Positions 1 through 19,335 of a stretch of 64,000 nucleotides of DNA are shown in pieces; within the stretch, counting starts at the first letter, position 1, and every line of letters begins with the position of its first letter. The DNA comes from Escherichia coli (GTDB lineage Bacteria; Pseudomonadota; Gammaproteobacteria; Enterobacterales; Enterobacteriaceae). Below the pieces are notes generated by a model. That model made no database searches, was not told where the DNA came from, and saw only the letters and a program-made list of their open reading frames with translations. Location of the stretch: the NCBI RefSeq assembly GCF_044324785.1, contig NZ_CP172127.1; one strand, 5' to 3'. Position numbers and translations under genes: made by a program.

Positions 1-57
1 CAGTTTCGCGAAATGAAACTGATGCGTAACCCGGGGTGTGAGGTGTGTGGGCAGTAA
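1..57 (+). CDS. moeB: 3' end of MoeB (molybdopterin-synthase adenylyltransferase); partial, the gene begins upstream of the window
   Basis: Frame 1 reads ...QFREMKLMRNPGCEVCGQ* . The CxxC tail and the position next to fsaA fit my recollection of MoeB and K-12 synteny. Confidence 0.75.
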   Translation, partial: QFREMKLMRNPGCEVCGQ

Positions 58-143
58 TTGCCACCTCAGGCCAGATAAGACGTAGCAGGCATCGGTGCAC
101 TCCGCCACGTCATCAGCAATTTATGAAGATGCAGAACGTCCGG

Positions 144-806
144 TTAAATCGACGTTCTGCCAAACGCTCCCAGCCAGTCCTGTTCAAACTTCGCCACAGC
201 GGCATCAACCGCCGGATAGCTAATCATCTGTTGTGCCACATCCAGCGGCAGAGTAATTGATTCACACCCTGCCAGTAAGCAGTCCAGCGCCTGACGCGGG
301 GTTTTGAAACTCGCGGCTAACACTTTCGCCTGCGGCGCATGCATTTTCAATAACTGGTGTAAGTCGGTCACAGTCTGAATACCGCTACCGCCCTGAGCAT
401 CAATACGATTAACGTAAGGCGCAACATATTCCGCACCTGCCAGCGCCGACAGCAGCCCTTGTGCTGCGCCATATACCGCGGTTCCCAGCGTCGGAATCCC
501 TTCCGCTTTTAACATCTTAATAGCTGCCAGCCCCTCGGCGGTCACCGGAACTTTCACCACGATATCCGCAATAATAGAACGCAATTTACGTGCGTCATTC
601 ACCATCCCTTCAGCAGTGGTAGCCATTACCTGGGCAAACAGACGCCCCTGACCGCCCATCGCTTCATGAAGTTCCGGAAGCACAACCTCCAGCGGTTTTT
701 TACCCGCGGCGATAATGCTTGGGTTAGTGGTCACACCCGCCAGCGGAAAAATACGTGACAGCGCCTTCACCGCAACAACGTCTGAAGTATCCAGATACAG
801 TTCCAT
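144..806 (-). CDS. fsaA: Fructose-6-phosphate aldolase 1 (220 aa)
   Basis: ORF 144..878 contains [32 protein letters not shown]..., recognised as FsaA. The start was trimmed to the MELYLDT codon at 806. Confidence 0.93.
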
Positions 807-869
807 AACCATCCTCAAAATGTACTTTTTGTCTGAATGTAGACTATCACGGGAAAACTCTCTGAACAG

Positions 870-883
870 TTGACGCACATCAA
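870..883. promoter_or_regulatory. FNR-like box TTGAC-GCAC-ATCAA in the fsaA/ybiY divergent region
   Basis: 9/10 match to the TTGAT-N4-ATCAA consensus, 54 nt upstream of the ybiY ATG. The downstream genes encode an anaerobic glycyl-radical system. Confidence 0.35.
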
Positions 884-887
884 TCTA

Positions 888-903
888 ACTTTCATTCGAA
901 AGT
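888..903. promoter_or_regulatory. Palindromic box ACTTTCATTCGAAAGT (copy 1 of 3 of the CTTTCATTCGAAA motif)
   Basis: Perfect 6-bp arms with a 4-nt spacer. The same 13-mer recurs at 4337..4349 and, inverted, at 5358..5370. Confidence 0.4.
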
Positions 904-936
904 ATTTTAATGTTTGAACGAAACAGAGAGGCAACT

Positions 937-1836
937 ATGATTTTCAATATTCAGCGCTACTCGACCCATGATGGCCCCGGTATCCGCACGGTCGTATTTC
1001 TTAAAGGCTGTTCGCTGGGCTGCCGCTGGTGTCAGAACCCGGAAAGCCGCGCCCGCACGCAGGATCTGCTGTATGACGCACGTCTGTGTCTGGAAGGCTG
1101 CGAGCTGTGCGCTAAGGCCGCGCCGGAAGTGATTGAGCGCGCGCTGAATGGCTTGCTTATTCATCGGGAAAAGTTAACCCCGGAGCATCTGACAGCGTTA
1201 ACCGACTGCTGCCCGACACAGGCGTTAACCGTATGTGGTGAAGTGAAAAGCGTTGAGGAGATAATGAAGACCGTTCTGCGCGATAAACCGTTTTACGATC
1301 GCAGCGGCGGCGGCTTAACGCTTTCTGGCGGTGAACCCTTTATGCAGCCGGAAATGGCGATGGCGCTACTGCAAGCCAGCCACGAGGCCGGCATTCATAC
1401 TGCGGTAGAAACCTGTCTGCATGTGCCGTGGAAATATATCACCCCTTCTCTGCCCTATATCGATCTGTTTCTTGCCGATTTAAAACACGTTGCCGACGCA
1501 CCGTTTAAACAGTGGACCGACGGTAATGCCGCCAGGGTGCTGGATAACCTGAAAAAACTCGCCGCAGCGGGCAAAAAAATCATTATCCGCGTGCCGCTGA
1601 TTCAGGGCTTTAATGCCGACGAAACCTCTGTAAAAGCCATTACCGATTTTGCCGCCGACGAGCTGCACGTTGGCGAAATTCATTTCCTGCCCTACCACAC
1701 GCTGGGCATCAACAAATATCACTTACTTAATCTGCCCTATGACGCCCCGGAAAAACCGCTTGATGCGCCAGAACTGCTCGACTTTGCCCAGCAGTATGCC
1801 TGCCAGAAAGGGTTAACCGCGACCTTACGAGGATAA
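937..1836 (+). CDS. ybiY: Glycyl-radical enzyme activating enzyme (radical SAM, PflA-like)
   Basis: [37 protein letters not shown]... carries the CxxxCxxC radical-SAM motif. It lies directly upstream of the GRE gene. Start trimmed from 910. Confidence 0.9.
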
Positions 1837-1841
1837 CAACC

Positions 1842-4274
1842 ATGACCACACTGAAACTGGATACGCTCAGCGACCGCATTAAAGCGCACAAAAATGCGCT
1901 GGTGCATATTGTGAAACCGCCGGTCTGTACCGAGCGCGCGCAGCACTATACTGAGATGTATCAACAACATCTCGATAAGCCGATCCCGGTACGTCGCGCG
2001 CTGGCGCTGGCGCATCACCTGGCGAATCGCACCATCTGGATCAAGCACGATGAGTTGATCATTGGCAACCAGGCAAGCGAAGTTCGCGCCGCGCCGATCT
2101 TCCCGGAATATACCGTCTCCTGGATCGAAAAAGAGATTGATGATCTGGCGGATCGTCCGGGTGCTGGTTTTGCGGTGAGCGAAGAGAACAAACGTGTTCT
2201 GCATGAAGTGTGCCCTTGGTGGCGCGGTCAGACGGTACAGGATCGCTGCTACGGCATGTTTACCGATGAGCAAAAAGGTCTGCTGGCGACCGGAATCATT
2301 AAAGCGGAAGGCAATATGACCTCCGGCGATGCGCACCTGGCGGTGAATTTCCCGCTACTGCTGGAAAAAGGTCTTGATGGTCTGCGCGAGAAAGTAGCGG
2401 AACGTCGCTCGCGCATCAACCTGACGGTGCTGGAAGATTTGCACGGCGAGCAGTTCCTGAAAGCGATTGATATCGTGCTGGTGGCAGTCAGTGAACACAT
2501 TGAACGTTTCGCTGCCCTGGCGCGTGAAATGGCAGCCACTGAAACCCGCGAAAGCCGTCGCGATGAACTGCTGGCGATAGCAGAAAACTGCGATCTTATC
2601 GCCCACCAGCCGCCGCAGACTTTCTGGCAGGCGCTGCAACTGTGCTACTTCATCCAGTTGATTTTGCAGATCGAATCTAACGGTCACTCGGTATCGTTTG
2701 GTCGTATGGACCAGTATCTCTACCCGTACTATCGCCGCGACGTTGAACTGAACCAGACACTGGATCGTGAACACGCCATCGAGATGCTGCATAGCTGCTG
2801 GTTAAAATTGCTGGAAGTGAACAAAATCCGCTCCGGCTCGCACTCGAAAGCCTCTGCGGGAAGTCCGCTGTATCAGAACGTCACCATTGGCGGACAAAAT
2901 CTGGTTGATGGTCAACCAATGGACGCGGTGAATCCACTCTCTTACGCGATCCTCGAATCCTGCGGTCGCCTGCGTTCTACTCAGCCTAACCTCAGCGTGC
3001 GTTACCATGCAGGAATGAGCAACGATTTCCTCGACGCCTGCGTACAGGTGATCCGCTGCGGCTTCGGGATGCCGGCGTTCAACAACGACGAAATCGTCAT
3101 CCCGGAATTTATTAAACTCGGTATTGAACCGCAGGACGCTTACGACTATGCAGCGATTGGTTGTATCGAAACCGCCGTCGGTGGCAAATGGGGCTATCGC
3201 TGTACCGGCATGAGCTTTATCAACTTCGCCCGCGTGATGCTGGCGGCGCTGGAAGGCGGGCGTGATGCCACCAGCGGCAAAGTGTTCCTGCCACAAGAAA
3301 AAGCGTTGTCAGCGGGTAACTTCAACAACTTCGATGAAGTAATGGACGCATGGGATACGCAAATCCGTTACTACACGCGTAAATCAATCGAAATCGAATA
3401 TGTCGTCGACACCATGCTGGAAGAGAACGTACACGATATTCTCTGCTCGGCGCTGGTGGATGACTGTATTGAGCGAGCGAAAAGTATCAAGCAAGGCGGC
3501 GCTAAATATGACTGGGTTTCTGGCCTGCAGGTCGGCATTGCTAACCTCGGCAACAGCCTGGCGGCAGTGAAGAAACTGGTATTTGAACAGGGCGCGATTG
3601 GTCAGCAACAGCTGGCTGCCGCACTGGCGGATGACTTCGACGGCCTGACTCACGAGCAGCTGCGTCAGCGGCTGATTAACGGTGCGCCTAAGTACGGCAA
3701 CGACGATGATACTGTCGATACGCTGCTGGCTCGCGCTTATCAGACCTATATCGACGAACTAAAACAGTACCATAACCCGCGCTATGGTCGTGGTCCGGTT
3801 GGCGGCAATTATTACGCGGGTACGTCATCTATCTCCGCTAACGTACCCTTTGGCGCGCAGACGATGGCAACGCCGGACGGGCGTAAAGCCCACACCCCGC
3901 TGGCAGAAGGCGCTAGTCCGGCCTCCGGTACTGATCATCTTGGCCCTACTGCGGTCATTGGCTCAGTGGGTAAACTGCCTACGGCCGCGATTCTCGGCGG
4001 CGTGTTGCTCAACCAGAAACTGAATCCGGCAACGCTGGAGAACGAATCTGACAAGCAGAAACTGATGATCCTGCTACGCACCTTCTTTGAAGTGCATAAA
4101 GGCTGGCATATTCAGTACAACATCGTTTCCCGCGAAACGCTGCTGGAAGCGAAAAAACATCCGGATCAGTACCGCGATCTGGTAGTGCGTGTCGCGGGTT
4201 ATTCCGCCTTCTTCACTGCGCTCTCTCCAGACGCACAGGACGATATCATCGCCCGTACTGAACATATGCTGTAA
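1842..4274 (+). CDS. ybiW: Glycyl radical enzyme (PFL-like, 810 aa)
   Basis: C-terminal glycyl-radical fingerprint RVAGYSAFF (Gly codon at 4197..4199) and active-site GCIE (3159..3170). Recognised as YbiW/PflF. Confidence 0.93.
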
Positions 4275-4336
4275 CTCTTCCGCCCGGCGGCCACCGTCGC
4301 CGGGCCAAATCATTCACATCATCAATTTCATCCTCG

Positions 4337-4349
4337 CTTTCATTCGAAA
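4337..4349. promoter_or_regulatory. CTTTCATTCGAAA box, copy 2, upstream of ybiV
   Basis: Exact 13-mer shared with 889..901 and with the reverse complement of 5358..5370. Confidence 0.35.
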
Positions 4350-4419
4350 TATAATTTGTGCTCTGCGTCACATTGTTATTACACTGTTACGGTTTCATTT
4401 TCGAGCCAGGAGCACACCT

Positions 4420-5235
4420 ATGAGCGTAAAAGTTATCGTCACAGACATGGACGGTACTTTTCTTAACGACGCCAAAACGTACAACCAACCACGTTTTATG
4501 GCGCAATATCAGGAACTGAAAAAGCGCGGCATTAAGTTCGTTGTCGCCAGCGGTAATCAGTATTACCAGCTTATTTCGTTCTTTCCTGAGCTAAAGGATG
4601 AGATCTCTTTTGTCGCGGAAAACGGCGCACTGGTTTACGAACATGGCAAGCAACTGTTCCACGGCGAACTGACCCGACATGAATCGCGGATTGTTATTGG
4701 CGAGTTGCTAAAAGATAAGCAACTCAATTTTGTCGCCTGCGGTCTGCAAAGTGCATATGTCAGCGAAAACGCCCCCGAAGCATTCGTCGCACTGATGGCA
4801 AAACACTACCATCGCCTGAAACCTGTAAAAGATTATCAGGAGATTGACGACGTACTGTTCAAGTTTTCGCTCAACCTGCCGGATGAACAAATCCCGTTAG
4901 TGATCGACAAACTGCACGTAGCGCTCGACGGCATTATGAAGCCGGTTACCAGTGGTTTTGGCTTTATCGACCTGATTATTCCTGGCCTGCATAAAGCGAA
5001 TGGTATTTCGCGGTTACTGAAACGCTGGGATCTGTCACCGCAAAATGTGGTAGCGATTGGCGACAGCGGTAACGATGCGGAGATGCTGAAAATGGCGCGT
5101 TATTCCTTTGCGATGGGCAATGCTGCGGAAAACATTAAACAAATCGCCCGTTACGCTACCGATGATAATAATCATGAAGGCGCGCTGAATGTGATTCAGG
5201 CGGTGCTGGATAACACATCCCCTTTTAACAGCTGA
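4420..5235 (+). CDS. ybiV: HAD-family sugar phosphatase (Cof-type, 271 aa)
   Basis: [17 protein letters not shown]... contains the HAD DxDGT motif. Recognised as YbiV/SupH. Start trimmed from 4189, with AGGAG 8 nt upstream. Confidence 0.9.
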
Positions 5236-5357
5236 CCTCTCTACCGGAGCTATGCGCTCCGGTTTTCCCTTCTTTTTACATCCTTTACATCACATCAAAT
5301 CATTAAACTTCCATTAACTTATTTATAACTTATATTGTCACATGCAAATCAGCATAG

Positions 5358-5370
5358 TTTCGAATGAAAG
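5358..5370. promoter_or_regulatory. CTTTCATTCGAAA box, copy 3 (inverted), immediately upstream of the ybiU RBS
   Basis: TTTCGAATGAAAG is the reverse complement of the 13-mer. It ends 16 nt before the ybiU ATG. Confidence 0.35.
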
Positions 5371-5386
5371 TTAATGCGAGGTGGTT

Positions 5387-6652
5387 ATGGCTTCTACTTT
5401 TACCAGCGACACATTGCCTGCCGATCACAAAGCAGCTATCCGTCAGATGAAGCACGCGCTGCGGGCGCAGCTTGGCGACGTCCAGCAGATCTTTAATCAG
5501 CTAAGCGATGACATTGCCACGCGAGTGGCTGAAATCAACGCACTCAAAGCACAGGGCGATGCCGTCTGGCCGGTGCTGTCTTATGCCGATATCAAAGCAG
5601 GTCATGTTACTGCAGAGCAGCGCGAACAAATTAAACGTCGCGGTTGTGCGGTGATAAAAGGCCATTTCCCCCGCGAACAAGCGCTAGGCTGGGATCAGTC
5701 GATGCTGGACTATCTGGACCGCAACCGCTTTGACGAGGTCTACAAAGGCCCCGGCGATAATTTCTTCGGGACACTCAGCGCTTCACGTCCCGAGATTTAC
5801 CCCATCTACTGGTCGCAGGCGCAAATGCAGGCCCGCCAGAGTGAAGAAATGGCGAATGTGCAGTCGTTTCTCAATCGTCTGTGGACATTTGAAAGTGATG
5901 GAAAGCAATGGTTTAACCCGGATGTGAGCGTCATCTACCCTGACCGTATCCGCCGCCGTCCGCCCGGAACGACCTCCAAAGGTCTTGGAGCGCATACCGA
6001 CTCCGGGGCGCTGGAACGCTGGCTGCTTCCAGCGTATCAGCACGTTTTCGCCAACGTCTTTAATGGCAATCTGGCGAAATACGATCCCTGGCATGCGGCA
6101 CATCGTACGGAAGTTGAAGAGTACACGGTGGACAACACCACCAAATGTTCCGTGTTTCGGACATTCCAGGGCTGGACAGCGCTCTCTGATATGCTGCCTG
6201 GTCAGGGGTTGCTGCACGTCGTGCCCATTCCTGAAGCCATGGCGTACGTACTGTTACGTCCGCTGCTTGATGATGTGCCGGAGGATGAACTGTGCGGCGT
6301 AGCGCCCGGAAGAGTGTTGCCGGTATCAGAGCAATGGCATCCACTGTTAATTGAGGCGTTAACCAGCATTCCAAAACTCGAGGCCGGAGACTCCGTCTGG
6401 TGGCACTGCGACGTCATCCATTCCGTTGCCCCCGTTGAAAATCAACAGGGTTGGGGCAACGTGATGTACATTCCTGCGGCACCGATGTGCGAGAAAAATC
6501 TTGCCTACGCGCACAAGGTGAAGGCCGCACTGGAAAAAGGCGCATCGCCGGGCGACTTCCCGCGCGAGGACTATGAAACAAACTGGGAAGGACGCTTTAC
6601 GCTTGCCGACCTCAACATTCACGGTAAGCGAGCGTTGGGAATCGACAGCTGA
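5387..6652 (+). CDS. ybiU: DUF1479-family protein (421 aa)
   Basis: MASTFTSDTLPADHKAAIRQMKHALRAQLGD... recognised as YbiU. Start trimmed by 2 codons. Confidence 0.85.
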   Translation: MASTFTSDTLPADHKAAIRQMKHALRAQLGDVQQIFNQLSDDIATRVAEINALKAQGDAVWPVLSYADIKAGHVTAEQREQIKRRGCAVIKGHFPREQALGWDQSMLDYLDRNRFDEVYKGPGDNFFGTLSASRPEIYPIYWSQAQMQARQSEEMANVQSFLNRLWTFESDGKQWFNPDVSVIYPDRIRRRPPGTTSKGLGAHTDSGALERWLLPAYQHVFANVFNGNLAKYDPWHAAHRTEVEEYTVDNTTKCSVFRTFQGWTALSDMLPGQGLLHVVPIPEAMAYVLLRPLLDDVPEDELCGVAPGRVLPVSEQWHPLLIEALTSIPKLEAGDSVWWHCDVIHSVAPVENQQGWGNVMYIPAAPMCEKNLAYAHKVKAALEKGASPGDFPREDYETNWEGRFTLADLNIHGKRALGIDS

Positions 6653-7722
6653 GTGTCGTACAGCCCTTCCCGTTCCACGGCGGTGTTCCCTTTTCCTGGG
6701 CGAACCCGCCGCACTGACTCCCGCACCGCCAATCGTCCGTGCAGCAGCAGCGAGCCCACCGGAGCATCCGGGCGAATCAGCCGCTGTTGCAACATTTGCA
6801 CCGCTTCATTGCCTAGCTCATCGCGTGGCACATGCACAGCCGTCAGGGGAACATCCTCGATTGCCGCAAGGTTAAAGCCGTCGATACTCATCACCGAGAC
6901 ATCCTGTGGTACGCGCAGACCACGACGATGTAGCGCATTTACCGTTCCCGCCGCCATAAAATCCCCGCCGACCAGAAACGCCGTCGGCAACGTCTTGCCA
7001 TTGGCGGCATCCAGCCACGCTCCGACCTTTTCTTCCGCTTCTTTAGCGCTAAAACTGCTGATATTCAGCAAATGACGGTCATGGTGAAAGGCCAGATTAT
7101 GCTGACGCCATGATTCTTTAATCCCTGCAAACCGCTGCTCCATAGTGTAGCGGCGCAGGCACATCACATTCATCACCTCCCGGTGACCCATTTCAAACAG
7201 ATAGCGGGCGGCGAACGCGCCAATTAACCGATGGTCCGGCGCAATCGCCGGGAGGCGCATTCGTTCATCACGGCAGTTGATCAGCACACAAGGCTTAGCG
7301 AGATCGGCGGCCAGATCATGGATGTGCGGATCGTCAATCCCCAGCAGGATCGCCGCCTGCGTATCTGCTTCATTCATCCGCGAGAGAAATAGCGCGGGAT
7401 CGCTGTCAAACTCCTCCAGCGCGCAGTAACGCAGCCGCACTTCATGCGGCGATAACGCTTTGCTGATGCTCTGGATCACACGGTAATAAAAGATATCAGA
7501 TCGTTGGTCAAAAGCGCGTTGCGGCGCGAAAATAATCAGGTTGTTCAGCAACATACGACCTGCTGCCATGCCATCCATCACGCCCAACTCACGCGCGCAG
7601 GCCAGCACCTGTTCGCGAGCGCGTGCACTGGTATTCGCTTTGCCAGCCAGCACCCGCGAAACCGTACTCGGCGATAGCCCGGTACGTGCGGCGATATCGG
7701 CGATTTTCAGCTTCTTGTCCAT
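6619..7722 (-). CDS. LacI/GalR-family transcriptional regulator (367 aa); not in the K-12 backbone as I recall it
   Basis: N-terminal HTH MDKKLKIADIAARTGLSPSTVSRVLAGK followed by a periplasmic-binding-protein-like core. Start trimmed to 7722. The 3' tail overlaps the ybiU 3' end by 34 nt. Confidence 0.85.
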   Translation of the reverse strand: MDKKLKIADIAARTGLSPSTVSRVLAGKANTSARAREQVLACARELGVMDGMAAGRMLLNNLIIFAPQRAFDQRSDIFYYRVIQSISKALSPHEVRLRYCALEEFDSDPALFLSRMNEADTQAAILLGIDDPHIHDLAADLAKPCVLINCRDERMRLPAIAPDHRLIGAFAARYLFEMGHREVMNVMCLRRYTMEQRFAGIKESWRQHNLAFHHDRHLLNISSFSAKEAEEKVGAWLDAANGKTLPTAFLVGGDFMAAGTVNALHRRGLRVPQDVSVMSIDGFNLAAIEDVPLTAVHVPRDELGNEAVQMLQQRLIRPDAPVGSLLLHGRLAVRESVRRVRPGKGNTAVEREGLYDTQLSIPNARLP

Positions 7723-8016
7723 TTTGTGATCTGCCTCTAATTCGGAAATGACAGAATTTTCATGAGCAAAAAAGCCCATTCTGTCTGGCATTAAATCCAT
7801 TTCAGTAATGTATATCAGTCACTCATGGAAAAACGTGCACAAAACCCGCTTTCTTTCGCTTTTAGGGTCTCTTACTGTGAATTGGTAGAACAACTTCCAT
7901 ACAAAAATAATGGAAAAACGAACAACAAAGACTTTATTTATCAAAAAGTTAAAAGTGGTGTGACAACTCCATTCTGACGTTGCCGCACAAACCCTATACC
8001 ATTCTGTGGAGTGCAT

Positions 8017-9318
8017 ATGAGTCAGGGTATCAATAACGATATGACTGCCAGTAAACCGCGCCATATCGTCAAAAATCTGCGTTGGTGGATACTGGTCCTT
8101 TTTTTGCTCGGTGTTACTGTCAACTACATCACGCGTAACTCGCTGGGTATTCTCGCCCCCGAACTGAAAAGCAGCCTGGGGATTACCACCGAACAATATT
8201 CCTGGATTGTAGGTGCTTTCCAGCTCGCCTATACCCTATTCCAACCGTTGTGCGGATGGCTGATTGACGTCATTGGCCTCAAACTGGGCTTTATGATCTG
8301 CGCGGGACTGTGGGCACTGGCCTGTCTGATGCATGCGGGGGCGGGAAACTGGGTACATCTGGCGCTGTTGCGCTTCTTTATGGGCGGTGCGGAAGCCGCA
8401 GCAACCCCAGCAAACGCCAAAACCATCGGTGAATGGTTTCCAAAATCAGAACGCCCGATCGCCGCAGGCTGGGCAGGCGTCGGTTTTTCCATCGGTGCCA
8501 TGCTGGCCCCACCGATTATCTATTTTGCCCACGCTTCATTCGGCTGGCAGGGTGCATTTATGTTCACTGGCATCCTGGCGATGCTGTGGGTCGTGCTGTG
8601 GTGGGCGTTCTATCACAGCCCGGATAAGCATCCTAACCTCAGCAAAGCCGAGCTGGACTTTATTCGCCAGGATAACGAAGCGCCCCCGGTCAAGTTACCC
8701 TTTCTGACCGCACTGAAAACCGTGGGCAAAAATAAACGCTTTTACGGTATCGCTATCCCGGCCTTTATGGCAGAACCGGCGTGGGCGGTGATGAGTTTCT
8801 GGGTTCCGCTATACCTGTCCAAAACCTATGGCATGGACCTGAAGCAGATCGCATTATTCGCCTGGTTGCCGTTCCTCGCCGCTGATCTTGGCAGTATTGC
8901 CAGCGGCTATCTGACCAAACTTTACACCCGCCTGTTTGGGCTGAGTCGTGTGAACTCCGTTGTCGCATCATCGGTCAGTGGCGCATTCCTGATGGTTTCG
9001 CTGGCGGTGATGGCCTTTACCAATAACCCGTATATCGCCATCGTCCTTATCTCCATCGGCGGCTTCGGTCACCAGATCATCTCCTGCATGCTAAGCGCAC
9101 TGGTGGTGGAATCCTTCGACAAAGGTCAGATGGCCACTGTTAACGGCATGCGCGGTTCTGCCGCGTGGATCGCAAGTTTCCTGTTCTCCCTGATAATCGG
9201 GGTTACCGCAGACAAAATCGGCTTTAACCCCCTGTTTATCGCCATGGGCTTCTTTGACCTGATTGGCGCTTTCTTCCTGGTCACCTTTATTGCTGAACGT
9301 CGCGCAAAACGCGCCTGA
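8017..9318 (+). CDS. MFS transporter, anion:cation symporter family, ExuT (hexuronate transporter)-like
   Basis: LRWWILVLFLLGVTVNYITRNSLGILAPELKSSLGITTEQYSWIVGAFQLAYTLFQPLCGWLID... parallels ExuT as I remember it. GGAG lies 6-7 nt before the ATG at 8017. Confidence 0.85.
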   Translation: MSQGINNDMTASKPRHIVKNLRWWILVLFLLGVTVNYITRNSLGILAPELKSSLGITTEQYSWIVGAFQLAYTLFQPLCGWLIDVIGLKLGFMICAGLWALACLMHAGAGNWVHLALLRFFMGGAEAAATPANAKTIGEWFPKSERPIAAGWAGVGFSIGAMLAPPIIYFAHASFGWQGAFMFTGILAMLWVVLWWAFYHSPDKHPNLSKAELDFIRQDNEAPPVKLPFLTALKTVGKNKRFYGIAIPAFMAEPAWAVMSFWVPLYLSKTYGMDLKQIALFAWLPFLAADLGSIASGYLTKLYTRLFGLSRVNSVVASSVSGAFLMVSLAVMAFTNNPYIAIVLISIGGFGHQIISCMLSALVVESFDKGQMATVNGMRGSAAWIASFLFSLIIGVTADKIGFNPLFIAMGFFDLIGAFFLVTFIAERRAKRA

Positions 9319-9332
9319 GAGTGGATGTAAAC

Positions 9333-11696
9333 ATGAAAACGCTGAAAAACTGGACCCTGCACAAACAGTCTGCCCACCACGTTGAACTGCTGGTCGATGG
9401 CCAGCATATCCTGTGCCTGTACGTGCTGGAAGAAAATCTGTTCCGCGTGCTGTTAAAACGCAAAGGCGAGCTGGCGCTGGATCGCACCTGGAGCATTGCT
9501 CCGGCGCAGGATGTGCCATGGGAAGGGCGCAGCCGCGAAGATCTCAGCGGCTTTAGCCTGCCCGCGTGGACATTGATCCAGCACGACGACACCGTGGTTA
9601 TCGCCACCGAGTCACTGCGTGTCACCGTTCACCAGCCGCTGTGGCTGGAGTGGCACTATCGTAACAACGAAGGCGAATGGCTGCCGTTGGTGAATGACCG
9701 CCCGACCAGCGCTTATCTGCTGAATGCCCACGGCGATGGCGTGGCACACTATCAGAGCCGTCGTAAAGATGAACGCTTTTATGGCCTCGGAGATAAAGCC
9801 GGCGACCTGCAACGCAACGGTAAACGTTACGAGATGCGTAACCTCGACGCGATGGGCTACAACGCCGTTAGTACTGACCCGCTGTACAAACACATTCCAT
9901 TCACCATCACCCGCCGCGATGACATTAGCTTCGGCCTGTTTTATGACAACCTCAGCAGCTGCTGGCTGGATCTGGGCAACGAGATCGACAACTACCACAC
10001 CGCCTATCGCCGCTGGCAGGCGGAAGCGGGTGATATCGACTACTACCTGTTTACCGGCGAACGCGTACTTGATATCACCAAAGCCTTCGTACGCCTGACC
10101 GGAAAAACCCTGTTCGGACCGAAATGGAGCCTGGGCTACAGCGGTTCAACTATGCACTACACCGATGCGCCGGACGCACAAAATCAGTTGATGAACTTTA
10201 TCCGCCTGTGTGAAGAACATGCAATTCCCTGCGATTCGTTCCAGCTCTCTTCCGGTTATACCTCAATTAACGGCAAACGCTATGTGTTCAACTGGAACTA
10301 CGACAAAGTGCCGCAGCCGAAAGTGATGAGCCAGGCATTTCACAATGCTGGTTTGCACCTGGCCGCCAATATCAAGCCGTGCCTGTTGCAGGATCACCCA
10401 CGCTATAACGAAGTGGCAGAAAGAGGACTGTTCATCCGTGATTCAGAAACAGATGAACCAGAACGTTCCAGCTTCTGGGATGACGAAGGTTCTAACCTCG
10501 ACTTTACTAATCCGCAGACCATCCAGTGGTGGCAGGAAGGCGTGACCACACAGCTTCTGGAGATGGGTATCGACTCCACCTGGAACGACAACAACGAATT
10601 CGAAGTATGGGACGGTGAAGCACGCTGTCACGGCTTTGGTCAGACGATCGCGATCAAACATATTCGCCCAGTGATGCCACTGCTGATGATGCGAGCCTCG
10701 ATGGAAGCCCAGCAGCGTTTCGCTCCGGAAAAACGTCCGTACTTGATCTCCCGCTCCGGCTGCGCGGGAATGCAGCGCTACGTGCAGACCTGGAGTGGCG
10801 ATAACCGCACTAGCTGGGACACTCTGCGCTACAACACCCGCATGGGTCTGGGGATGAGCCTCTCCGGGTTGTATAACCTCGGTCACGACGTCGGCGGTTT
10901 CTCCGGTGATAAACCGGACCCGGAACTGTTTGTACGCTGGGTACAAAACGGCGTGATGCATCCGCGCTTTACGATTCACTCATGGAACGATGACCATACC
11001 GTAAACGAACCGTGGATGTATCCGGGCGTCACTCCGGCGATCCGCAGCGCTATTGAGTTGCGCTATCGCCTGCTGCCCTACTTTTATACCCTGATGTGGC
11101 AGGCATACGCCGATGATGAACCAATGCTACGTCCGACTTTCCTTGACCACGAGCACGACGTTCAGACTTTTGAAGAGTGTGATGACTTCCTGCTTGGTCG
11201 CGATATTTTGGTTGCCAGCGTCGTAGAGCAAGGCGAGCGCCAGCGCCGTGTATGGCTGCCAGATAACGAAACTGGCTGGTACGATTTCTACAACGGCGAA
11301 TGGTTCAGTGGCGGTCAGTGGATCACCCTCGACGCACCGCTGGAGAAACTGCCGCTGATGGTGCGTGCCGGGGCTGGTCTACCGCTCAGCAAACGCATCA
11401 CCTATGTGAGCGCAGAACAAGACGATACCCGCGAACTGAAACTGTTCCCGCTGAAAGGTGTGGGCACAACGTCCGGCCTGCTGTTTGAAGACGATGGCGA
11501 AAGCTGGGGCTACCAAACTGGTAATGCGCTTTGGGTGGAATGGGAAATGGTTTGCGATGGGGCGACCATCAACCTGAAAGTCAACGCGCGCGGGGATTAT
11601 CGTCCTGCATGGAGTGCACTGAAAGTGTCATTACCATTGGAAGAAAAACGCACGCTGCTGGTCAATGGTGTTGAAGGGAGTGAATGGATGCGTTAA
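9333..11696 (+). CDS. Glycoside hydrolase family 31 alpha-glycosidase (about 787 aa), specificity unknown
   Basis: GH31 signatures GIDSTWNDNNEF (nucleophile Asp region) and QTWSGDNRTSW. An alternative GTG start exists at 9321. The stop of the upstream MFS gene is 15 nt away, so it is probably an operon. Confidence 0.85.
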   Translation: MKTLKNWTLHKQSAHHVELLVDGQHILCLYVLEENLFRVLLKRKGELALDRTWSIAPAQDVPWEGRSREDLSGFSLPAWTLIQHDDTVVIATESLRVTVHQPLWLEWHYRNNEGEWLPLVNDRPTSAYLLNAHGDGVAHYQSRRKDERFYGLGDKAGDLQRNGKRYEMRNLDAMGYNAVSTDPLYKHIPFTITRRDDISFGLFYDNLSSCWLDLGNEIDNYHTAYRRWQAEAGDIDYYLFTGERVLDITKAFVRLTGKTLFGPKWSLGYSGSTMHYTDAPDAQNQLMNFIRLCEEHAIPCDSFQLSSGYTSINGKRYVFNWNYDKVPQPKVMSQAFHNAGLHLAANIKPCLLQDHPRYNEVAERGLFIRDSETDEPERSSFWDDEGSNLDFTNPQTIQWWQEGVTTQLLEMGIDSTWNDNNEFEVWDGEARCHGFGQTIAIKHIRPVMPLLMMRASMEAQQRFAPEKRPYLISRSGCAGMQRYVQTWSGDNRTSWDTLRYNTRMGLGMSLSGLYNLGHDVGGFSGDKPDPELFVRWVQNGVMHPRFTIHSWNDDHTVNEPWMYPGVTPAIRSAIELRYRLLPYFYTLMWQAYADDEPMLRPTFLDHEHDVQTFEECDDFLLGRDILVASVVEQGERQRRVWLPDNETGWYDFYNGEWFSGGQWITLDAPLEKLPLMVRAGAGLPLSKRITYVSAEQDDTRELKLFPLKGVGTTSGLLFEDDGESWGYQTGNALWVEWEMVCDGATINLKVNARGDYRPAWSALKVSLPLEEKRTLLVNGVEGSEWMR

Positions 11697-11875
11697 ATCA
11701 TTACCGGGGCCGGGAGGCGACTGCACCTTACCCGGTCCAGCCATCGAATCCTTTACCTCAGTATTTCACGCTGCAGGAAGGCAGCAAACCTGTAAACCCC
11801 GGGAGCTTAAATAAGTAAGTGACCGGGGTGAACAGGTGAAGCCAATGCATCTGCCGCATGAAAGACGGCGGGGAA

Positions 11876-13471
11876 TTAACCGTCGATCCCTTTACTACGC
11901 AGGTAATCTTCGTAATTACCGCTAAAGTCAATAACGCGTTCCGGGGTGATTTCCAGAATGCGGGTCGCCAGGGAGCTTACGAACTCACGGTCGTGTGAAA
12001 CAAAGATCAGCGTGCCCTGATACAGTTCCAGCGCCATGTTCAGCGACTCGATGGATTCCATATCCAGGTGGTTGGTCGGTTCGTCCATGATCAGAATGTT
12101 CGGCTTCTGCATCATTAACTTACCAAACAGCATCCGCCCTTTTTCCCCACCGGAAAGCACTTTCGCTGGTTTTTTGATGTCGTCCTGGCTGAACAGCAAA
12201 CGACCGAGAATGCTGCGTACCGCCTGCTCGTCATCGCCTTCCTGCTTCCACTGGCTCATCCATTCGAACACGGTCAGATCATTTTCAAACTCATATTCGT
12301 GGTCCTGAGCATAGTAACCAATGCGCGCGTTTTCAGACCATTTTACGGTGCCGCTGTCCGGTTGCAGATCGCCCACCAGCGTTTTCAGCAGCGTTGATTT
12401 ACCGACGCCGTTGGTACCCAGTACCGCAAGTTTTTCACCGACCTCCAGCAGCAGGTTGAGATTTTTAAACAGTGGACCGTTATCAAACCCTTTGGTCAGA
12501 CCTTCCACTTCCAGCGCGTTACGGAACAGTTTCTTATCCTGTTCAAAACGGATGAACGGGTTCTGACGGCTGGAGGCTTTCACCTCTTCCAGTTTGATTT
12601 TATCAATCTGGCGCGCGCGCGAAGTTGCCTGGCGAGATTTCGAGGCGTTGGCGCTAAAGCGGCTAACGAAAGATTGCAGCTCAGCAATCTGCGCTTTCTT
12701 CTTGGCGTTATCAGCCAGCAGACGTTCACGCGCCTGGGTCGCCGCCGTCATGTACTCATCGTAGTTGCCCGGATAAACGCGCAGCTCGCCGTAATCCAGA
12801 TCCGCCATATGGGTACAAACCATGTTAAGGAAGTGACGGTCGTGCGAGATGATGATCATGGTGCTGTCACGCTCGTTCAGCACCTGTTCCAGCCAACGAA
12901 TGGTGTCGATGTCGAGGTTGTTGGTCGGTTCGTCGAGCAGGAGAATGTCTGGATCAGCAAAAAGCGCCTGTGCCAGCAGCACACGCAGCTTCCAGCCAGG
13001 AGCAACTTCACTCATCGGGCCGTAGTGCTGTTCCACTGGAATTCCCACGCCAAGCAACAATTCACCGGCGCGAGCTTCCGCAGAGTAACCGTCCATTTCG
13101 CCGTATTTCACTTCCAGATCGGCCACTTTATAGCCGTCTTCTTCACTCATTTCCGGCAAAGCATAGATGCGGTCACGCTCCTGCTTCACTTCCCACAACT
13201 CTTTATGCCCCATGATCACCGTATCCAGCACAGTGAACTCTTCAAAGGCAAACTGATCCTGACGCAGCTTACCAATGCGCTCGTTGGGATCGAGGGAAAC
13301 GTTACCCAACGTCGGCTCTAAGTCGCCGCCGAGGATCTTCATAAAGGTGGATTTACCACTACCGTTCGCGCCAATCAGGCCGTAACGGTTGCCGCCGCCA
13401 AATTTGACGGAAATGTTTTCAAACAACGGCTTACTGCCGAACTGCATGGTGACGTTACTGGAAACTAACAC
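11876..13471 (-). CDS. ybiT: ABC-F family ATPase (two ABC domains, no TMD)
   Basis: Two Walker A motifs ([18 protein letters not shown]) and two LSGGE signatures. Recognised as YbiT. Confidence 0.93.
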
Positions 13472-13689
13472 AGGCGTATCCTGAAAAGAGATATGACAAA
13501 CCGCGCATTATGCCATAAGTCTGAAAGAAGATCCTGCTCCTCGCTTAAGGTCTACACTCAAGCCAAAGGCAAAAAATGTGATTTCGTACACATCTGATTT
13601 CACTGTGAGCTGGAATGAACTTATAATGCGCTTCCAATACTCTAATATTCTCAACCCAATGGCCTGCCAGGCACAAAATCTCGCTTAAC

Positions 13690-14610
13690 ATGAATATGAA
13701 ATTGAAAACATTATTCGCAGCGGCCTTCGCTGTTGTCGGCTTTTGCAGTACCGCCTCTGCGGTAACTTATCCTCTGCCAACCGACGGGAGTCGCCTGGTT
13801 GGTCAGAATCAGGTGATCACCATTCCTGAAGGTAACACTCAGCCGCTGGAGTATTTTGCCGCCGAGTACCAGATGGGGCTTTCCAATATGATGGAAGCGA
13901 ACCCCGGTGTGGATACCTTCCTGCCGAAAGGCGGTACTGTACTGAACATTCCGCAGCAGCTGATCCTGCCGGATACCGTTCATGAAGGCATCGTCATTAA
14001 CAGTGCAGAGATGCGTCTGTATTACTATCCGAAAGGAACCAACACTGTTATCGTGCTGCCGATCGGCATTGGTCAGTTAGGCAAAGACACGCCTATCAAC
14101 TGGACCACCAAAGTTGAGCGTAAAAAAGCAGGCCCGACCTGGACGCCGACCGCCAAAATGCACGCAGAGTACCGCGCTGCGGGCGAACCGCTTCCGGCTG
14201 TCGTTCCGGCAGGTCCGGATAACCCGATGGGTCTGTATGCACTCTACATCGGTCGCCTGTACGCTATCCATGGCACCAACGCCAACTTCGGTATCGGCCT
14301 GCGTGTAAGTCATGGCTGTGTGCGTCTGCGTAACGAAGACATTAAATTCCTGTTCGAGAAAGTGCCTGTCGGTACTCGCGTGCAGTTTATTGATGAGCCG
14401 GTGAAAGCGACTACCGAACCAGACGGCAGCCGTTACATTGAAGTCCATAACCCGCTGTCTACCACCGAAGCCCAGTTTGAAGGTCAGGAAATTGTGCCAA
14501 TTACCCTGACGAAGAGCGTGCAGACAGTGACCGGTCAGCCAGATGTTGATCAGGTTGTTCTGGATGAAGCGATCAAAAATCGTTCCGGGATGCCGGTTCG
14601 TCTGAATTAA
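13690..14610 (+). CDS. ldtB: L,D-transpeptidase (Lpp attachment), 306 aa
   Basis: Signal peptide, LysM-like region and YkuD catalytic motif [12 protein letters not shown]. Recognised as YbiS/LdtB. Confidence 0.93.
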
Positions 14611-14630
14611 TCGTCAAAACGTAAAACAGA

Positions 14631-14655
14631 GGCGGACTCATCATCCGCCTTTTTT
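14631..14655 (+). terminator. Rho-independent terminator after ldtB
   Basis: GGCGGA-ctcatca-TCCGCC followed by TTTTTT. Confidence 0.75.
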
Positions 14656-14667
14656 ATTTGCCAGACC

Positions 14668-15786
14668 CTACCAGGCCGGGATCATAACCAACAAAACGTA
14701 TCCCACCAGCGCCGCCCACAACAGCATCGGTATTGAATAGAGATGGAAACGCCACCAGATACGGCGATCGTTCGCCATCCGTAACGCAATCAAATTTGCC
14801 AGCGATCCGGGTAATAAACCAAAGCCACCTACGTTAACCGCCCATGCCAGCAGCAACGACGGCGGCACATAATTGAGCAGCAAAATGGTACTCGGCACGT
14901 TACTGATCACCTGCGATAAACCGATTGCCGTTAACCATAACCCGGGTTCAGATAAATGACTCACGTTACCCAACACACCTTGCAACGCTGGAAGCTGGGT
15001 CAGTAAATGGACGTCGATAAACATCGCCATAAACACCAGCAGCAGCGTCCAGTCCACACTCAACACCACGCGACGTGCCAGCAGCGCAAAGCCCGCCGCC
15101 ACAATCACCAGTCCCCACAGCTCTTGTTTTAACTCCAGCGCCGTCAGAAAGACGATATACAGCCCCAGACAACTCCACACCAGCCGCGGTTTCCACTCCG
15201 GAGTTTGCACCCCCGTATGGTATTGGAGTGCCTTTCCAGGGAAACAACACCAGCACAGGAGCAGGAGCGTCAGCATCATTGCGCCAGCCAGTGGTGCCAT
15301 TTGGGCAATAAATCCGGCAAACGAAAGACCAGAACGTCCCCAGATAAGAATATTTTGCGGGTTGCCAATTGGCGTCAGTAGCGAACCAGCGTTGACTGCC
15401 AGCGCCTCAAAAATAATCAGCCGATTAACCGGGATCTCACACAGTCTTTTGAGCGTGATAGTCAGCGGAACAACTATAAACAGCGCGACATCGTTGGTCA
15501 GAAAGGTAGAAAGCAGCGCCGCCGCCAGCACCATAAACATCGCCAGCCGACGCTCCGTAGCAAAGCGGCGCACCATTTTGCGCCCCAGCACATCAAAATA
15601 ACCGCTTAGCTCCACACCTTTAGTCAGCAGCATCAGGCCGCTTAAGGTGATGATGGTGTGCCAGTCGATAGCAGCAGGCCAGGATTTCGGTGCAAAGGGA
15701 ACAAAAAAACTTAATCCGATGCCAACAAGAATTAATAACTGAAAAAAACGATCGCCTTGCAGCGTGCGTAAAAAAGGCAGGCTCAT
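14668..15786 (-). CDS. ybiR: Putative anion permease (ArsB/NhaD superfamily)
   Basis: 372-aa polytopic membrane protein recognised as YbiR. ATGA overlap with mntR. Confidence 0.88.
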
Positions 15787-16250
15787 TTGGCACCGTGTTT
15801 CTGGGTAAACAAACGAAAGGCATCCAGCGTCTCTTCACTAACATGGTGCTCCATGCCTTCCGCGTCGCGACGGGCGATTTCCGGACTGACGCCCAACACC
15901 AACAAGAAATTTTCGACTATCTGATGTCGCTCGCGGCTTTCCTGCGCCAGTTTCTCTCCTTCTGCCGTTAAAAACACGCCACGCCAGGGGATCATTTCAA
16001 TCAGCCCCATGGTTGCCAGCCGCTTAAGCATTTTCGCCACCGTCGGTTGCGAAACCCCCAGACGAGCAGCCATGTCCACCTGACGAGCTTCCCCCACTTC
16101 CCTGATCAAGTCAGAAATCAGCTCAACGTAATCATCAATAAGCTCGCGCCGATGCGCCTCTCTGACCTGGCGGAACCCTTCAACGTGCTCTTCCACGTTC
16201 ACTAACTGCGTCACTTTTTTTGCTGTTGGCGTACCTGCGCGACGACTCAT
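15783..16250 (-). CDS. mntR: Mn(II)-responsive transcriptional regulator (DtxR family)
   Basis: 155 aa, ...[38 protein letters not shown]... recognised as MntR. Confidence 0.93.
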
Positions 16251-16361
16251 TGTGCTTCCTCATTATGGTGACGCATACCTAGCGTTCTCATTTCGTGCGC
16301 ACATTGTAAACCAGAGTTGCGAAGGTACAAAAAATTAACGTTTTAGCAATAGCTATATAAT

Positions 16362-16375
16362 ATAGCCTGTGCTAT
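16362..16375. promoter_or_regulatory. Candidate MntR operator ATAGC-CTGT-GCTAT upstream of mntS
   Basis: An inverted repeat ATAGC-N4-GCTAT is the architecture I recall for the mntH MntR site. A further ATAGC copy lies just upstream (16350-16360). Confidence 0.5.
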
Positions 16376-16435
16376 ATCTGTATGTAATGCAATCATCCCT
16401 CAAGGATCGACGGGATTAGCAAGTCAGGAGGTCTT

Positions 16436-16564
16436 ATGAATGAGTTCAAGAGGTGTATGCGCGTGTTTAGTCATTCTCCCTTTAAAGTACGGTTAATGCT
16501 GCTCTCTATGTTGTGCGATATGGTCAACAACAAACCGCAGCAAGATAAACCTTCCGATAAATAG
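16436..16564 (+). CDS. mntS: Small protein MntS (42 aa); below the ORF-track length cutoff
   Basis: Manual translation gives MNEFKRCMRVFSHSPFKVRLMLLSMLCDMVNNKPQQDKPSDK*. AGGAGG lies 7 nt upstream. The position between mntR and opgE matches K-12. Confidence 0.85.
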   Translation: MNEFKRCMRVFSHSPFKVRLMLLSMLCDMVNNKPQQDKPSDK

Positions 16565-16835
16565 CGGCGTCGCGGTACGCCGCTTCACTCCTGCTTTTAT
16601 GCAGGCACAACGCGTTTTGGTCTGAAAAACCCCACTTTTTGTCGGATTTGCAATCCCCTTCGCAAAAGATTTGTTCGTCAGTAGTTGACCTGAACGGCGG
16701 CTCGCTCTATCTTCTTGCAGCCCTGCGTATATTGCGGCTCGCGGATGCGGACCCCTTTCCCCTCTTCACGCACTCTTGCAGGTATTGACCCTTGACGCCA
16801 GGGTAAGCACATGGCGTTTGTTACGATAGTGGCAT

Positions 16836-18419: not shown

Positions 18420-18423
18420 AAAC

Positions 18424-18452
18424 AAAAATCCGCCCCGAGAGGCGGATTTTTT
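18424..18452. terminator. Bidirectional Rho-independent terminator between convergent opgE and ompX
   Basis: AAAAATCCGCC-ccgaga-GGCGGATTTTTT, with A-run and T-run flanks. Confidence 0.8.
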
Positions 18453-18467
18453 ATATCACCGAAGTGA

Positions 18468-18983
18468 TTAGAAGCGGTAACCAACACCGGCAATCCAGGT
18501 GCCTACGTCAACGCTACGAATACGGCTCTGCTCGTAAGAGAAGTCCAGAGCAACGTTTTCCATCGGGTTGAACTGCAGACCAGCACCGTAGGAGAAACCG
18601 TAGTCGCTGGTGTCGTGTTTGTAGGTCGGGTATTCAGTGGTCTGGAATTTACCATAACCCACACCCACTACACCGTAGATGCTTGCCCAGTCGTTAATGC
18701 GGTAAGCCGGACCAGCAGTGATGCCGTAGTACTGGTTTTTGTTGTAGTCACCAGAGCTTGCAGTACGGCTTTTCTCGGTGTAAGTGAAAGAACCGATCAC
18801 ACCCAGCGGGCTGTTGTCTTCTTCATAGCGGTATTTCAGGTTGAAACCGCCCATTTTGTTCATTTGGCCCTGAGCGTCGCTCTGTGCGTAACCGCCAGTT
18901 ACGGTAGAAGTCGCAGCTACGGAAGTACCTGCGGTGAAAGCCAGAACTGCGGCCAGTGCTGAAAGACATGCAATTTTTTTCAT
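18468..18983 (-). CDS. ompX: Outer membrane protein X (8-stranded beta-barrel)
   Basis: MKKIACLSALAAVLAFTAGTSVAATSTVTGGYAQSD...GVGYRF recognised as OmpX. Start trimmed by 2 codons. Confidence 0.95.
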   Translation of the reverse strand: MKKIACLSALAAVLAFTAGTSVAATSTVTGGYAQSDAQGQMNKMGGFNLKYRYEEDNSPLGVIGSFTYTEKSRTASSGDYNKNQYYGITAGPAYRINDWASIYGVVGVGYGKFQTTEYPTYKHDTSDYGFSYGAGLQFNPMENVALDFSYEQSRIRSVDVGTWIAGVGYRF

Positions 18984-19335
18984 AACCACCTCAAATGTGA
19001 TTCAAATAAGTCCTAAGTTTTAAATATATCAAAAATTAATGGGAAACTCTTCGCGATTTGTGATGTCTAACGGGCCATTTCATGTAACAGAACGTTTCCA
19101 TACACCGCTATCCATCTAAATTTAAATCACTTTTTCAGAGAACTGCGTAAGTATTACGCATGTTTTCCCTGTCATTCATCCAGATTATTCCTAATCACCA
19201 GACTAATGATTCCATCAATCCTGGCGCATTTTAGTCAAAACGGGGGAAAATTTTTTCAACAAATGCTCAACCAGCATTGGGTATATCCAGTACACTCCAC
19301 GCTTTACTTAAGTCTAGATATTTGTGGGAGAAAGG

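Follow-up and report, generated by a model that had tools for sequence, protein, structure and literature searches.

In Escherichia coli, imported glucuronides are handled by the uidR-uidABC (gus) system: a dedicated repressor, an importer for glucuronides and a glucuronidase acting in the cytoplasm, which supplies D-glucuronate to UxaC and UxuAB. Here, we describe a locus of similar logic in a 64,000-nt stretch of E. coli NZ_CP172127.1 (the window, whose positions serve as coordinates below), where a LacI-family regulator, a transporter of the major facilitator superfamily (MFS) and a glycoside hydrolase of family 31 (GH31) lie between ybiU and ybiT. We read these three genes, with a probability of roughly 0.55, as an ancestral, self-contained catabolic cassette whose substrate would be an acidic alpha-glycoside, and probably an alpha-glucuronide, and whose product would feed the Ashwell pathway. 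The cassette differs from uid in its enzyme (GH31, with its retaining alpha-glycosidase fold and a predicted alpha anomer, versus GH2), in its carrier (an ExuT-like anion:cation symporter [ACS] versus the GPH-family UidB) and in its regulator (LacI-type versus TetR-type). The module type itself is familiar, and the interest of the locus lies chiefly in a testable prediction of a new GH31 specificity.

Several other described systems share single features with the cassette. The yih cluster likewise couples a cytoplasmic GH31 enzyme, YihQ, to an importer for a glucose-configured sugar with an anion at C6, which is also what we predict here; however, the YihQ residues R301/W304/Y508 are not reproduced (W to F, Y to F), the cassette enzyme has instead lost Asp residues and carries Lys348 and Arg545, and the yih neighbours are genes of the sulfo-Embden-Meyerhof-Parnas pathway, whereas those of the cassette clade are uronate genes. 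E. coli YicJ-YicI is also a two-gene transporter-GH31 operon for a small imported alpha-glycoside, but YicI has D306-C307-F308 and W345 where the cassette enzyme has S306-S307-G308 and N346, and YicJ belongs to another transporter family (GPH). ExuT is in the same ACS family as the cassette transporter, which is nevertheless a separate paralogue, paired with a glycosidase under its own LacI-type regulator and presumed to carry a glycoside rather than a free hexuronate. The reaction and role predicted for the cassette enzyme are those of the alpha-glucuronidases of families GH67 (AguA, an intracellular enzyme acting on imported aldouronic acids), GH115 and GH4, whose folds and families are unrelated to GH31. 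Finally, the GulPQM-GulD L-gulonate cluster of Haemophilus influenzae comprises a tripartite ATP-independent periplasmic (TRAP) transporter, UxuB, UxuA, KdgK, a 2-keto-3-deoxy-6-phosphogluconate aldolase and a GntR regulator (PMC5788505). Its scaffold is that of the Pasteurellaceae GH31 loci described below, with GulD (L-gulonate dehydrogenase) as the entry module in place of GH31 plus UxaC. The combination of a GH31 scaffold, a charge-reversed pocket and ExuT- or TRAP-type carriers sets the cassette apart from all of these systems.

The genes of the interval were called from an open reading frame (ORF) map, a Pfam scan and the RefSeq annotation of near-identical genomes:

5387-6652, plus strand: ybiU (DUF1479/Gig2-like), left flank; Pfam Gig2-like match with E=1.4e-154, and RefSeq annotation
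6640-11882: segment missing from K-12-type genomes, 5243 bp versus a 257-bp spacer of repetitive extragenic palindromic (REP)/bacterial interspersed mosaic element (BIME) sequence; blastn
6619-7722, minus strand: LacI-family regulator; maximal ORF 6619-7800, Pfam LacI HTH, Peripla_BP_3 and Peripla_BP_1
7723-8016: divergent control region; phylogenetic footprint, repeats and promoter scan
8017-9318, plus strand: MFS transporter of the anion:cation symporter type, ExuT paralogue; Pfam MFS_1, 212 bits
9333-11696, plus strand: GH31 glycoside hydrolase, 787 aa; four GH31 Pfam domains
11697-11875: spacer of 179 nt between the GH31 and ybiT stop codons; sequence
11876-13471, minus strand: ybiT (ABC-F ATPase), right flank; two Pfam ABC_tran domains and ABC_tran_Xtn

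Much of this layout had been described in a first-pass annotation made from the letters alone, and it held. The ORF map and Pfam scan confirmed three extra genes between ybiU and ybiT, namely a minus-strand LacI-family regulator and a divergent MFS-GH31 pair, and ybiU and ybiT are indeed adjacent and convergent in K-12-type genomes. The transporter and hydrolase form a tight two-gene unit: as stated earlier, the MFS stop and the GH31 ATG are 15 nt apart (9333-9318; 14 intervening nucleotides). The last 34 nt of ybiU overlap the 3' end of the regulator on the opposite strand. In blastn against a K-12-like genome (L002), homology broke off after position 6639 and restarted at 11883, which means that a segment of 5243 bp, close to the 5.2 kb first estimated, stands in place of the 257-bp spacer, which consists of REP/BIME elements together with the terminator hairpin of ybiT.

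The GH31 protein has the domain architecture of its family. Pfam models PF13802, PF01055 (297 bits), PF21365 and PF17137 all scored above their cutoffs, corresponding to an N-terminal mutarotase-like domain, a (beta/alpha)8 catalytic domain, and proximal and distal C-terminal beta-sandwich domains. No obvious hydrophobic N-terminal signal sequence was seen by eye, so the enzyme is probably cytoplasmic. Its RefSeq counterpart in PapM-32-1 and PCN033, WP_000854249.1, shows about 99% identity to the window copy. In alignments with mouse glucosidase II, FjDex31A, YihQ and YicI, both catalytic residues are kept: the nucleophile D419 (WNDNNE) and the acid/base D490 (WSGDN) match the catalytic Asp residues of glucosidase II, YihQ (D405/D472) and YicI (D416/D482). 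The -1 pocket, by contrast with the canonical alpha-glucosidase subsite, is atypical, being formed by Q304-L-S306-S307-G308-Y309, N346, K348, N420 and R545: the canonical L-D-I-(D/E) is replaced by L-S306-S307-G308, I-x-D by N346-I-K348, D-M by D-N420 and L/F by R545. Two Asp residues are thus lost and two basic residues (Lys348 and Arg545) gained, a change that would suit an anionic sugar. An alpha-xylosidase of the YicI type was considered and rejected, since YicI D306, C307/F308 and W345 align with S306, S307/G308 and N346; in YicI, Cys307/Phe308 and Trp345 close the C6 pocket while Asp306 is retained, and positions 306-308 are reported to set its C6 specificity (Okuyama et al. 2006).

This unusual pocket is a stable trait of a large clade. 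The pocket residues and D419/D490 were invariant in 79 species loci sharing 57-91% identity. Furthermore, when 1.84 billion cluster representatives (50%-identity clusters) were searched, about 130 of the best 150 matches, down to about 31% identity, carried the same co-varying pocket set, and in the same search the canonical set (D-I-D/H, I/M-D, D-M) was seen only at 29-33% identity. The signature clade spans Proteobacteria and Firmicutes. Judging from its charge-reversed pocket (Asp306 to Ser/Gly, Asp348 to Lys, Met420 to Asn, Leu/Phe545 to Arg), this clade may represent the first alpha-glucuronidase lineage in family 31, a tentative proposal to which we give slightly less than even odds. No GH31 member is known to have alpha-glucuronidase activity.

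The partner transporters point in the same direction. The cassette MFS protein shows 43% identity to E. coli ExuT over 414 aa, that is, over the full length (E=7e-120), which bears out the ExuT-like assignment made at first reading. Its best PDB match is DgoT, and its best NCBIfam model is TIGR00893 (D-galactonate-transporter subfamily), with a score of 266 bits, below the cutoff of 395. Fold and closest similarity to hexuronate/aldonate symporters therefore place it in the ACS family. To see how far the pairing extends, we scanned one genome per species (GTDB representatives) with the GH31 alignment, which yielded 80 loci, and mapped the window proteins onto them. GH31 was preceded by an ExuT-like MFS gene in 61 of the 80 loci and directly by TRAP dctQ-dctM in 17. 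The nearest PDB entries to the TRAP binding proteins were 4N15, 4N17, 4LN5, 4N91, 4N8Y and 4X8R, which are reported to be glucuronate/galacturonate binders (Vetting et al. 2015); they were far from the L-gulonate binder 4PBQ. The binding protein of the GH31 loci thus belongs to a hexuronate-type group and not to the 4PBQ group of the Gul cluster.

The genomic neighbourhood provides a third line of evidence. In 25 of the 80 loci, uxaC, uxuB (mannitol-dehydrogenase family), uxuA, kdgK or eda and/or a GntR/FCD regulator lay within about 7 kb of GH31, and 22 loci had at least one of these five uronate catabolic genes nearby. The uronate-linked loci come from Erwinia, Pantoea, Kalamiella, Pragia, Brenneria, Aeromonas, Vibrio, Psychromonas, Pasteurellaceae, Marinomonas and the alphaproteobacteria Stappia, Pannonibacter and Pseudovibrio, so that Erwiniaceae, Budviciaceae and Pectobacteriaceae are all represented. 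In the Firmicute Thermoanaerobacter mathranii, genes for UxuB-like, UxaC, DctP, DctQ, DctM and a GH31 about 40% identical to ours stand in a row. Five loci, including those of Vibrio and Stappia, also encode a GH2 enzyme with the N-x-K motif (GWNRKG) of beta-glucuronidases and no obvious signal sequence; as these clusters hold no other transporter, the TRAP system is implied to import glucuronides. In the Pasteurellaceae loci (L068-L071 and L076, about 3000-14400), the scaffold of the H. influenzae L-gulonate cluster is kept and GulD is exchanged for GH31 plus UxaC, a swap that is expected if GH31 delivers glucuronate. This cluster is also a clean case of module swapping in a catabolic operon. 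The scanned neighbours in Serratia/Rahnella, Microvirga and Kushneria were housekeeping or uninformative genes (der, protealysin, xseA, guaBA, radical SAM) and gave no clue to the aglycone.

Since three independent lines (transporters, neighbours and active site) converge, we hold with moderate confidence that the substrate class is that of acidic, glucuronate-containing alpha-glycosides, and with lower confidence that glucuronate occupies the -1 site. In the proposed scheme, the LacI-type repressor would control its own gene and the divergent operon, probably via ATGAAA-N4-TTTCAT-like sites; the ExuT-paralogous symporter would import an acidic alpha-glycoside containing D-glucuronate; the cytoplasmic GH31, for which alpha-glucuronidase activity with a uronic acid bound at the -1 site is most likely, would hydrolyse it; and the glucuronate released would enter the core Ashwell pathway (UxaC, UxuB, UxuA, KdgK and Eda), encoded elsewhere in E. 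coli. Xylan-derived aldouronic acids are candidate substrates, and Enterobacter asburiae JDR-1 reportedly ferments methylglucuronoxylose. Another candidate is glucuronosyl-glycerol derived from glucuronosyl-diacylglycerol, a documented lipid (PMC3586718).

Several observations weigh against this scheme. The position of K348 and R545 in the pocket is predicted from alignment to residues in GAA, MGAM and YicI structures, and no report of a GH31 alpha-glucuronidase was found in the searchable literature. The transporters resemble carriers of free hexuronates and could import a monosaccharide, or a glycoside with glucuronate at its reducing (+1) end. No uronate gene adjoins the cassette in E. coli, the window included, or in most Enterobacteriaceae, whose uronate pathway genes sit elsewhere in the genome (e.g., uxaCA-exuT in L090). 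In Clostridia, distant clade members from metagenome-assembled genomes (MAGs; L096-L098) at about 40% identity keep the pocket signature but, in place of uronate genes, either adjoin COesterase/BD-FAE-type esterases or stand in a row of AraC / GH31 / GDE_C-like / GPH transporter / PIG-L deacetylase, so the substrates of the clade may include esterified or N-acetylated glycosides. As to ancestry, the K-12 spacer shows no deletion scar, so that the cassette may have been lost within Escherichia or may have been regained there through homologous recombination.

If the prediction is true, alpha-linked uronic acids become a new class of GH31 substrates, and the simple signature L-S-S-G-Y, N-I-K-P, W-N-D-N-N-E, P-R-F-T-I-H would re-annotate thousands of 'alpha-glucosidase' entries. 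The cassette would then supply the missing alpha-glucuronide entry step of the Ashwell pathway in Klebsiella, Enterobacter, Cronobacter, Serratia, Vibrio, Haemophilus/Aggregatibacter and about one tenth of E. coli, and constitute a previously unrecognised alpha-glucuronide route in enterobacteria, vibrios, Pasteurellaceae and thermophilic clostridia, with relevance to gut cross-feeding on plant xylan fragments and to the fermentation of hemicellulose hydrolysates. If it fails, the locus is an ordinary sugar cassette that some strains have and others lack.

A question raised by the resemblance to free-hexuronate carriers is whether glucuronate might sit at the reducing end (+1) of an imported disaccharide, such as alpha-glucosyl-, alpha-xylosyl- or alpha-GlcNAc-glucuronate, from which GH31 would remove a neutral alpha-linked sugar. 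This is unlikely, but it fares best among the alternatives: the transporters are paralogous to hexuronate carriers and binding proteins that recognise the uronate ring itself, and the association with Uxa and Uxu genes is explained equally well. However, the remodelling affects the -1 pocket itself, where the Asp pair is lost and Lys and Arg are gained at lining positions, whereas the GH31 alpha-xylosidase YicI retains the first Asp. Moreover, the beta-glucuronidase-like GH2 in the same TRAP clusters implies the import of glucuronides with C1 aglycones.

Less probable again is that the enzyme is an ordinary alpha-glucosidase and that the cassette serves the use of a neutral alpha-glucoside (nigerose, kojibiose or a maltose-like sugar). 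'Alpha-glucosidase' is the database name of the enzyme; its closest solved relatives are endoplasmic reticulum glucosidase II and a GH31 dextranase (E ~1e-80); and its nearest NCBIfam models are those of the MalA alpha-glucosidase and of alpha-xylosidase (YicI), although these, like the YihQ model, score far below their cutoffs. Against these similarities stand the replacement of all the canonical D-I-(D/E), I..D and D-M residues, the carboxylate-specific partner transporters (ACS-type MFS or TRAP) in 78 of the 80 loci, and the recurrent uronate-gene neighbours.

We then considered the origin of the cassette, which the first-pass annotation had called an accessory island. A presence/absence survey found the segment in 577 of 5426 complete E. 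coli genomes, with at least 80% of its length in 575 (10.6%). Most copies (487 genomes) were at least 99% identical to that of the window; 89 genomes fell in the 95-99% band and one in the 90-95% band. All E. coli matches were chromosomal and in one copy each, and every listed one lay between ybiU and ybiT. The genes are thus accessory in E. coli rather than part of its conserved core, and the K-12 adjacency of ybiU and ybiT had been stated correctly. The second half of the term, inserted foreign DNA, is not supported. The complete order ybiY-ybiW-ybiV-ybiU / regulator / MFS-GH31 / ybiT-ldtB recurs in 17 of the 80 species-level loci, in genera including Kluyvera, Enterobacter, Lelliottia, Leclercia, Phytobacter, Kosakonia, Scandinavium, Pseudescherichia, Pluralibacter, Pseudocitrobacter and Siccibacter, as well as in Salmonella diarizonae; Klebsiella pneumoniae, where the GH31 cluster holds 6706 sequences, has the identical gene order. 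Even the length of the ybiU/regulator overlap, exactly 34 nt, is shared by E. coli, S. diarizonae, Kluyvera, Pseudocitrobacter, Pseudescherichia and strain G50; the Enterobacter group has an overlap of 79-82 nt. The K-12-type end of ybiU (...GMDV-stop) is that of cassette-bearing S. diarizonae and Pseudescherichia, with divergence starting right after the stop codon; at the other side, the C-terminus of YbiT reads ...KGIDG-stop in the cassette-bearing allele versus ...KGIE-stop in the K-12 allele. The GH31-ybiT spacer, in which sequence inspection and a terminator scan revealed no REP and no strong terminator in the window, ranges from 33 to 2582 nt among genera.

Divergence measures agree with this picture. 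Synonymous divergence (dS) between the window and other genera is saturated for the cassette genes (0.9-1.6) and for ybiT and ldtB (0.8-1.5) alike, so no donor genus can be named among the 19 genera/species sampled. The dN/dS of the cassette (about 0.05-0.07; a few dN values above 2 in the table were alignment artefacts and were ignored) indicates purifying selection. GC content at third codon positions is 0.63-0.65 in the cassette genes and 0.58-0.64 in the flanks, and overall GC content is 54.3% in the segment and 52.4% in the window. Within E. coli, M160133 (98% class) differs from the window by a dS of 0.04-0.10 in the cassette and 0.055-0.127 in the flanks. Cassette dS to the window was below flank dS in PapM-32-1 and in Escherichia sp. 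MOD1-EC7003, a separate species (0.06-0.10 versus 0.20-0.21 for ybiT/ldtB; L004, 1123-4799 versus 4984-7711), which hints at recombinational spread or exchange of the cassette among Escherichia lineages.

Horizontal acquisition, with insertion at the ybiU-ybiT junction of some E. coli strains, could account for the 10.6% carriage, for the slightly higher GC content and for the low cassette dS in these two strains, which suggests some recombinational spread. Nevertheless, we consider it improbable, given the identical junctions in many genera, saturated dS to every genus sampled, flank-like composition at third positions and an intraspecies diversity as deep as that of the flanks. The hallmarks of a mobile element are also missing: in agreement with the first reading, no integrase or insertion sequence (IS) ORF was present at the segment in the ORF map or annotation and no tRNA within window positions 1-20000; no terminal direct or inverted repeats were found around the segment; and its composition is ordinary and its single chromosomal site in 577 genomes is shared with other genera. 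We therefore favour, with high confidence, an old Enterobacteriaceae locus that shows presence/absence polymorphism in E. coli, most lineages of which are without it. Inside Escherichia, the cassette may simply have been lost, or lost and then regained by recombination. When the 257-bp spacer of K-12 was compared by sensitive local alignment with the cassettes of E. coli, S. diarizonae, Pseudescherichia and Kluyvera, the scores were no better than those of shuffles, and neither a cassette remnant nor a deletion scar was found.

The position of the cassette next to the ybiYW-ybiV-ybiU-fsaA cluster had suggested a functional link at first reading. YbiW is a glycyl-radical 1,5-anhydroglucitol-6-phosphate C-O lyase of 'anhydroglycolysis', and its product, 1-deoxyfructose-6-phosphate, is cleaved by Fsa-type aldolases (PMC13450708; PMC12441222). 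Feeding of this pathway by the cassette, with GH31 acting as an alpha-glucan lyase or side source of 1,5-anhydrofructose or else releasing 1,5-anhydroglucitol, would fit the adjacency of the two loci in Enterobacteriaceae and the facts that all known alpha-1,4-glucan lyases are GH31 proteins and that GH31 hydrolases form trace 1,5-anhydrofructose (PMC12441222). It is nonetheless very improbable. The glycyl-radical enzyme (GRE) cluster is absent from 62 of the 80 cassette loci, and its flanking genes match in essentially all E. coli genomes while only about 11% have the cassette, leaving about 89% with the cluster and without the cassette; the adjacency is therefore inherited synteny. Outside Enterobacteriaceae the cassette never accompanies the cluster and recurs instead with glucuronate-catabolism genes, so the suggested link is unsupported. 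Furthermore, 1,5-anhydroglucitol enters as its 6-phosphate via the phosphotransferase system (PMC12441222) and not via an anion symporter, and transporter families and neighbours indicate uronates. In glucan lyases, an Asn next to the beta3 Asp (N459 in the Gracilariopsis enzyme) assists elimination (PMC12441222). The matching position here, read via non-lyase GH31 alignments, is Ser307, and the adjacent Asp is absent; genomic context and transporter argue against membership of the lyases. The sole case of a non-orthologous GRE near the cassette, and a point in favour of such feeding, is an Enterobacterales MAG (L039, 17950-20977) in which a GRE and its activase, with 36-37% identity to YbiW/YbiY, lie 5.5 kb downstream.

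In the remotest alternative, the cassette would be another system of the sulfoquinovosidase type, with a 6-sulfonated glucoside as its substrate: known GH31 members show that recognition of a C6 anion can evolve, and Arg316 aligns with YihQ Arg301, but a YihQ-type assignment was rejected as W304 and Y508 of the triad align with F319 and F523, the K-R-Y motif holding the Arg also occurs in the neutral glucosidase II, no sulfoglycolysis genes lie nearby, and the transporter is ExuT-like and not YihO/YihP-like.

Turning to the regulator, Pfam matches PF00356, PF13377 and PF00532 correspond to a LacI-type helix-turn-helix and a periplasmic-binding-protein-like effector domain, as in the LacI/GalR family; no NCBIfam equivalog reached its cutoff. 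The Prokaryotic Genome Annotation Pipeline (PGAP) places its start inconsistently, at 7779 in PapM-32-1 and PCN033 (1161 nt) and at 7722 in M160133 (1104 nt). The true start is probably the ATG at 7722 (MDKKLKIADIA...), because its CAT and the upstream GAG are conserved across genera, the conserved footprint falls within the 'extension', and PGAP itself uses this start in M160133. The longer annotation engulfs a conserved palindrome that is probably a regulatory site. In a phylogenetic footprint of the divergent region across 18 genera/species, this palindrome, ATGACAGAATTTTCAT, lies at 7748-7763, upstream of the 7722 start; the repeat ATGGAAAAACG occurs at 7825 and 7910, TTCCAT at 7895 and the conserved block GTGTGACAAC at 7957-7966. 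A promoter scan found a promoter-like TTGGTA-18-AATAAT at 7882-7911, and a conserved Shine-Dalgarno sequence, GGAG (8008-8011), precedes the MFS ATG. The conserved blocks hold ATGGAA/TTCCAT half-sites, and the half-site ATGRAA/TTYCAT was observed four times versus 0.49 expected (P ~0.002). These data make ATGACAGAATTTTCAT and the half-sites a candidate operator for repression by the LacI-type protein.

Apart from the cassette, the ybiV-ybiT interval of E. coli varies in other ways. No report linking ybiU or ybiT with GH31 was found in a literature search. A second cassette site in E. coli IH5 (NZ_CP168949.1, 5048186-5061163) was rejected as a chimeric assembly artefact: a 978-bp piece of the MFS-GH31 junction lies there amid fragments of about 1 kb (tuf, casA, capsid genes, bla and aadA5), all annotated as partial. 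Empty sites were tallied via the presence of ybiU, as a query with the K-12 junction was swamped by REP copies (128,364 places). The results showed that ybiU is present in 4308 of the 5426 genomes, 220 of which have a divergent allele of 60-80% identity; in L085 (3386-4645), for example, ybiU is 77.5% identical and lies between normal ybiV and ybiT, which suggests that this allele is imported or ancient. In about 1118 genomes neither ybiU nor the cassette is present, and some 200 bp separate ybiV from ybiT (e.g., L084, 3235-3433). The interval is thus a multi-state hotspot, found with the cassette, with a REP spacer, with a REP spacer plus IS621, with a divergent ybiU or with ybiU deleted, and these states could act as an E. 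coli lineage marker. The IS621 copies, which belong to the IS110 family, lie inside the REP-containing ybiU-ybiT spacer of many cassette-less genomes, such as E. coli M19 (L003, 2652-4165). IS621 prefers REP sequences, and its copies in this spacer indicate that the site has been repeatedly remodelled.

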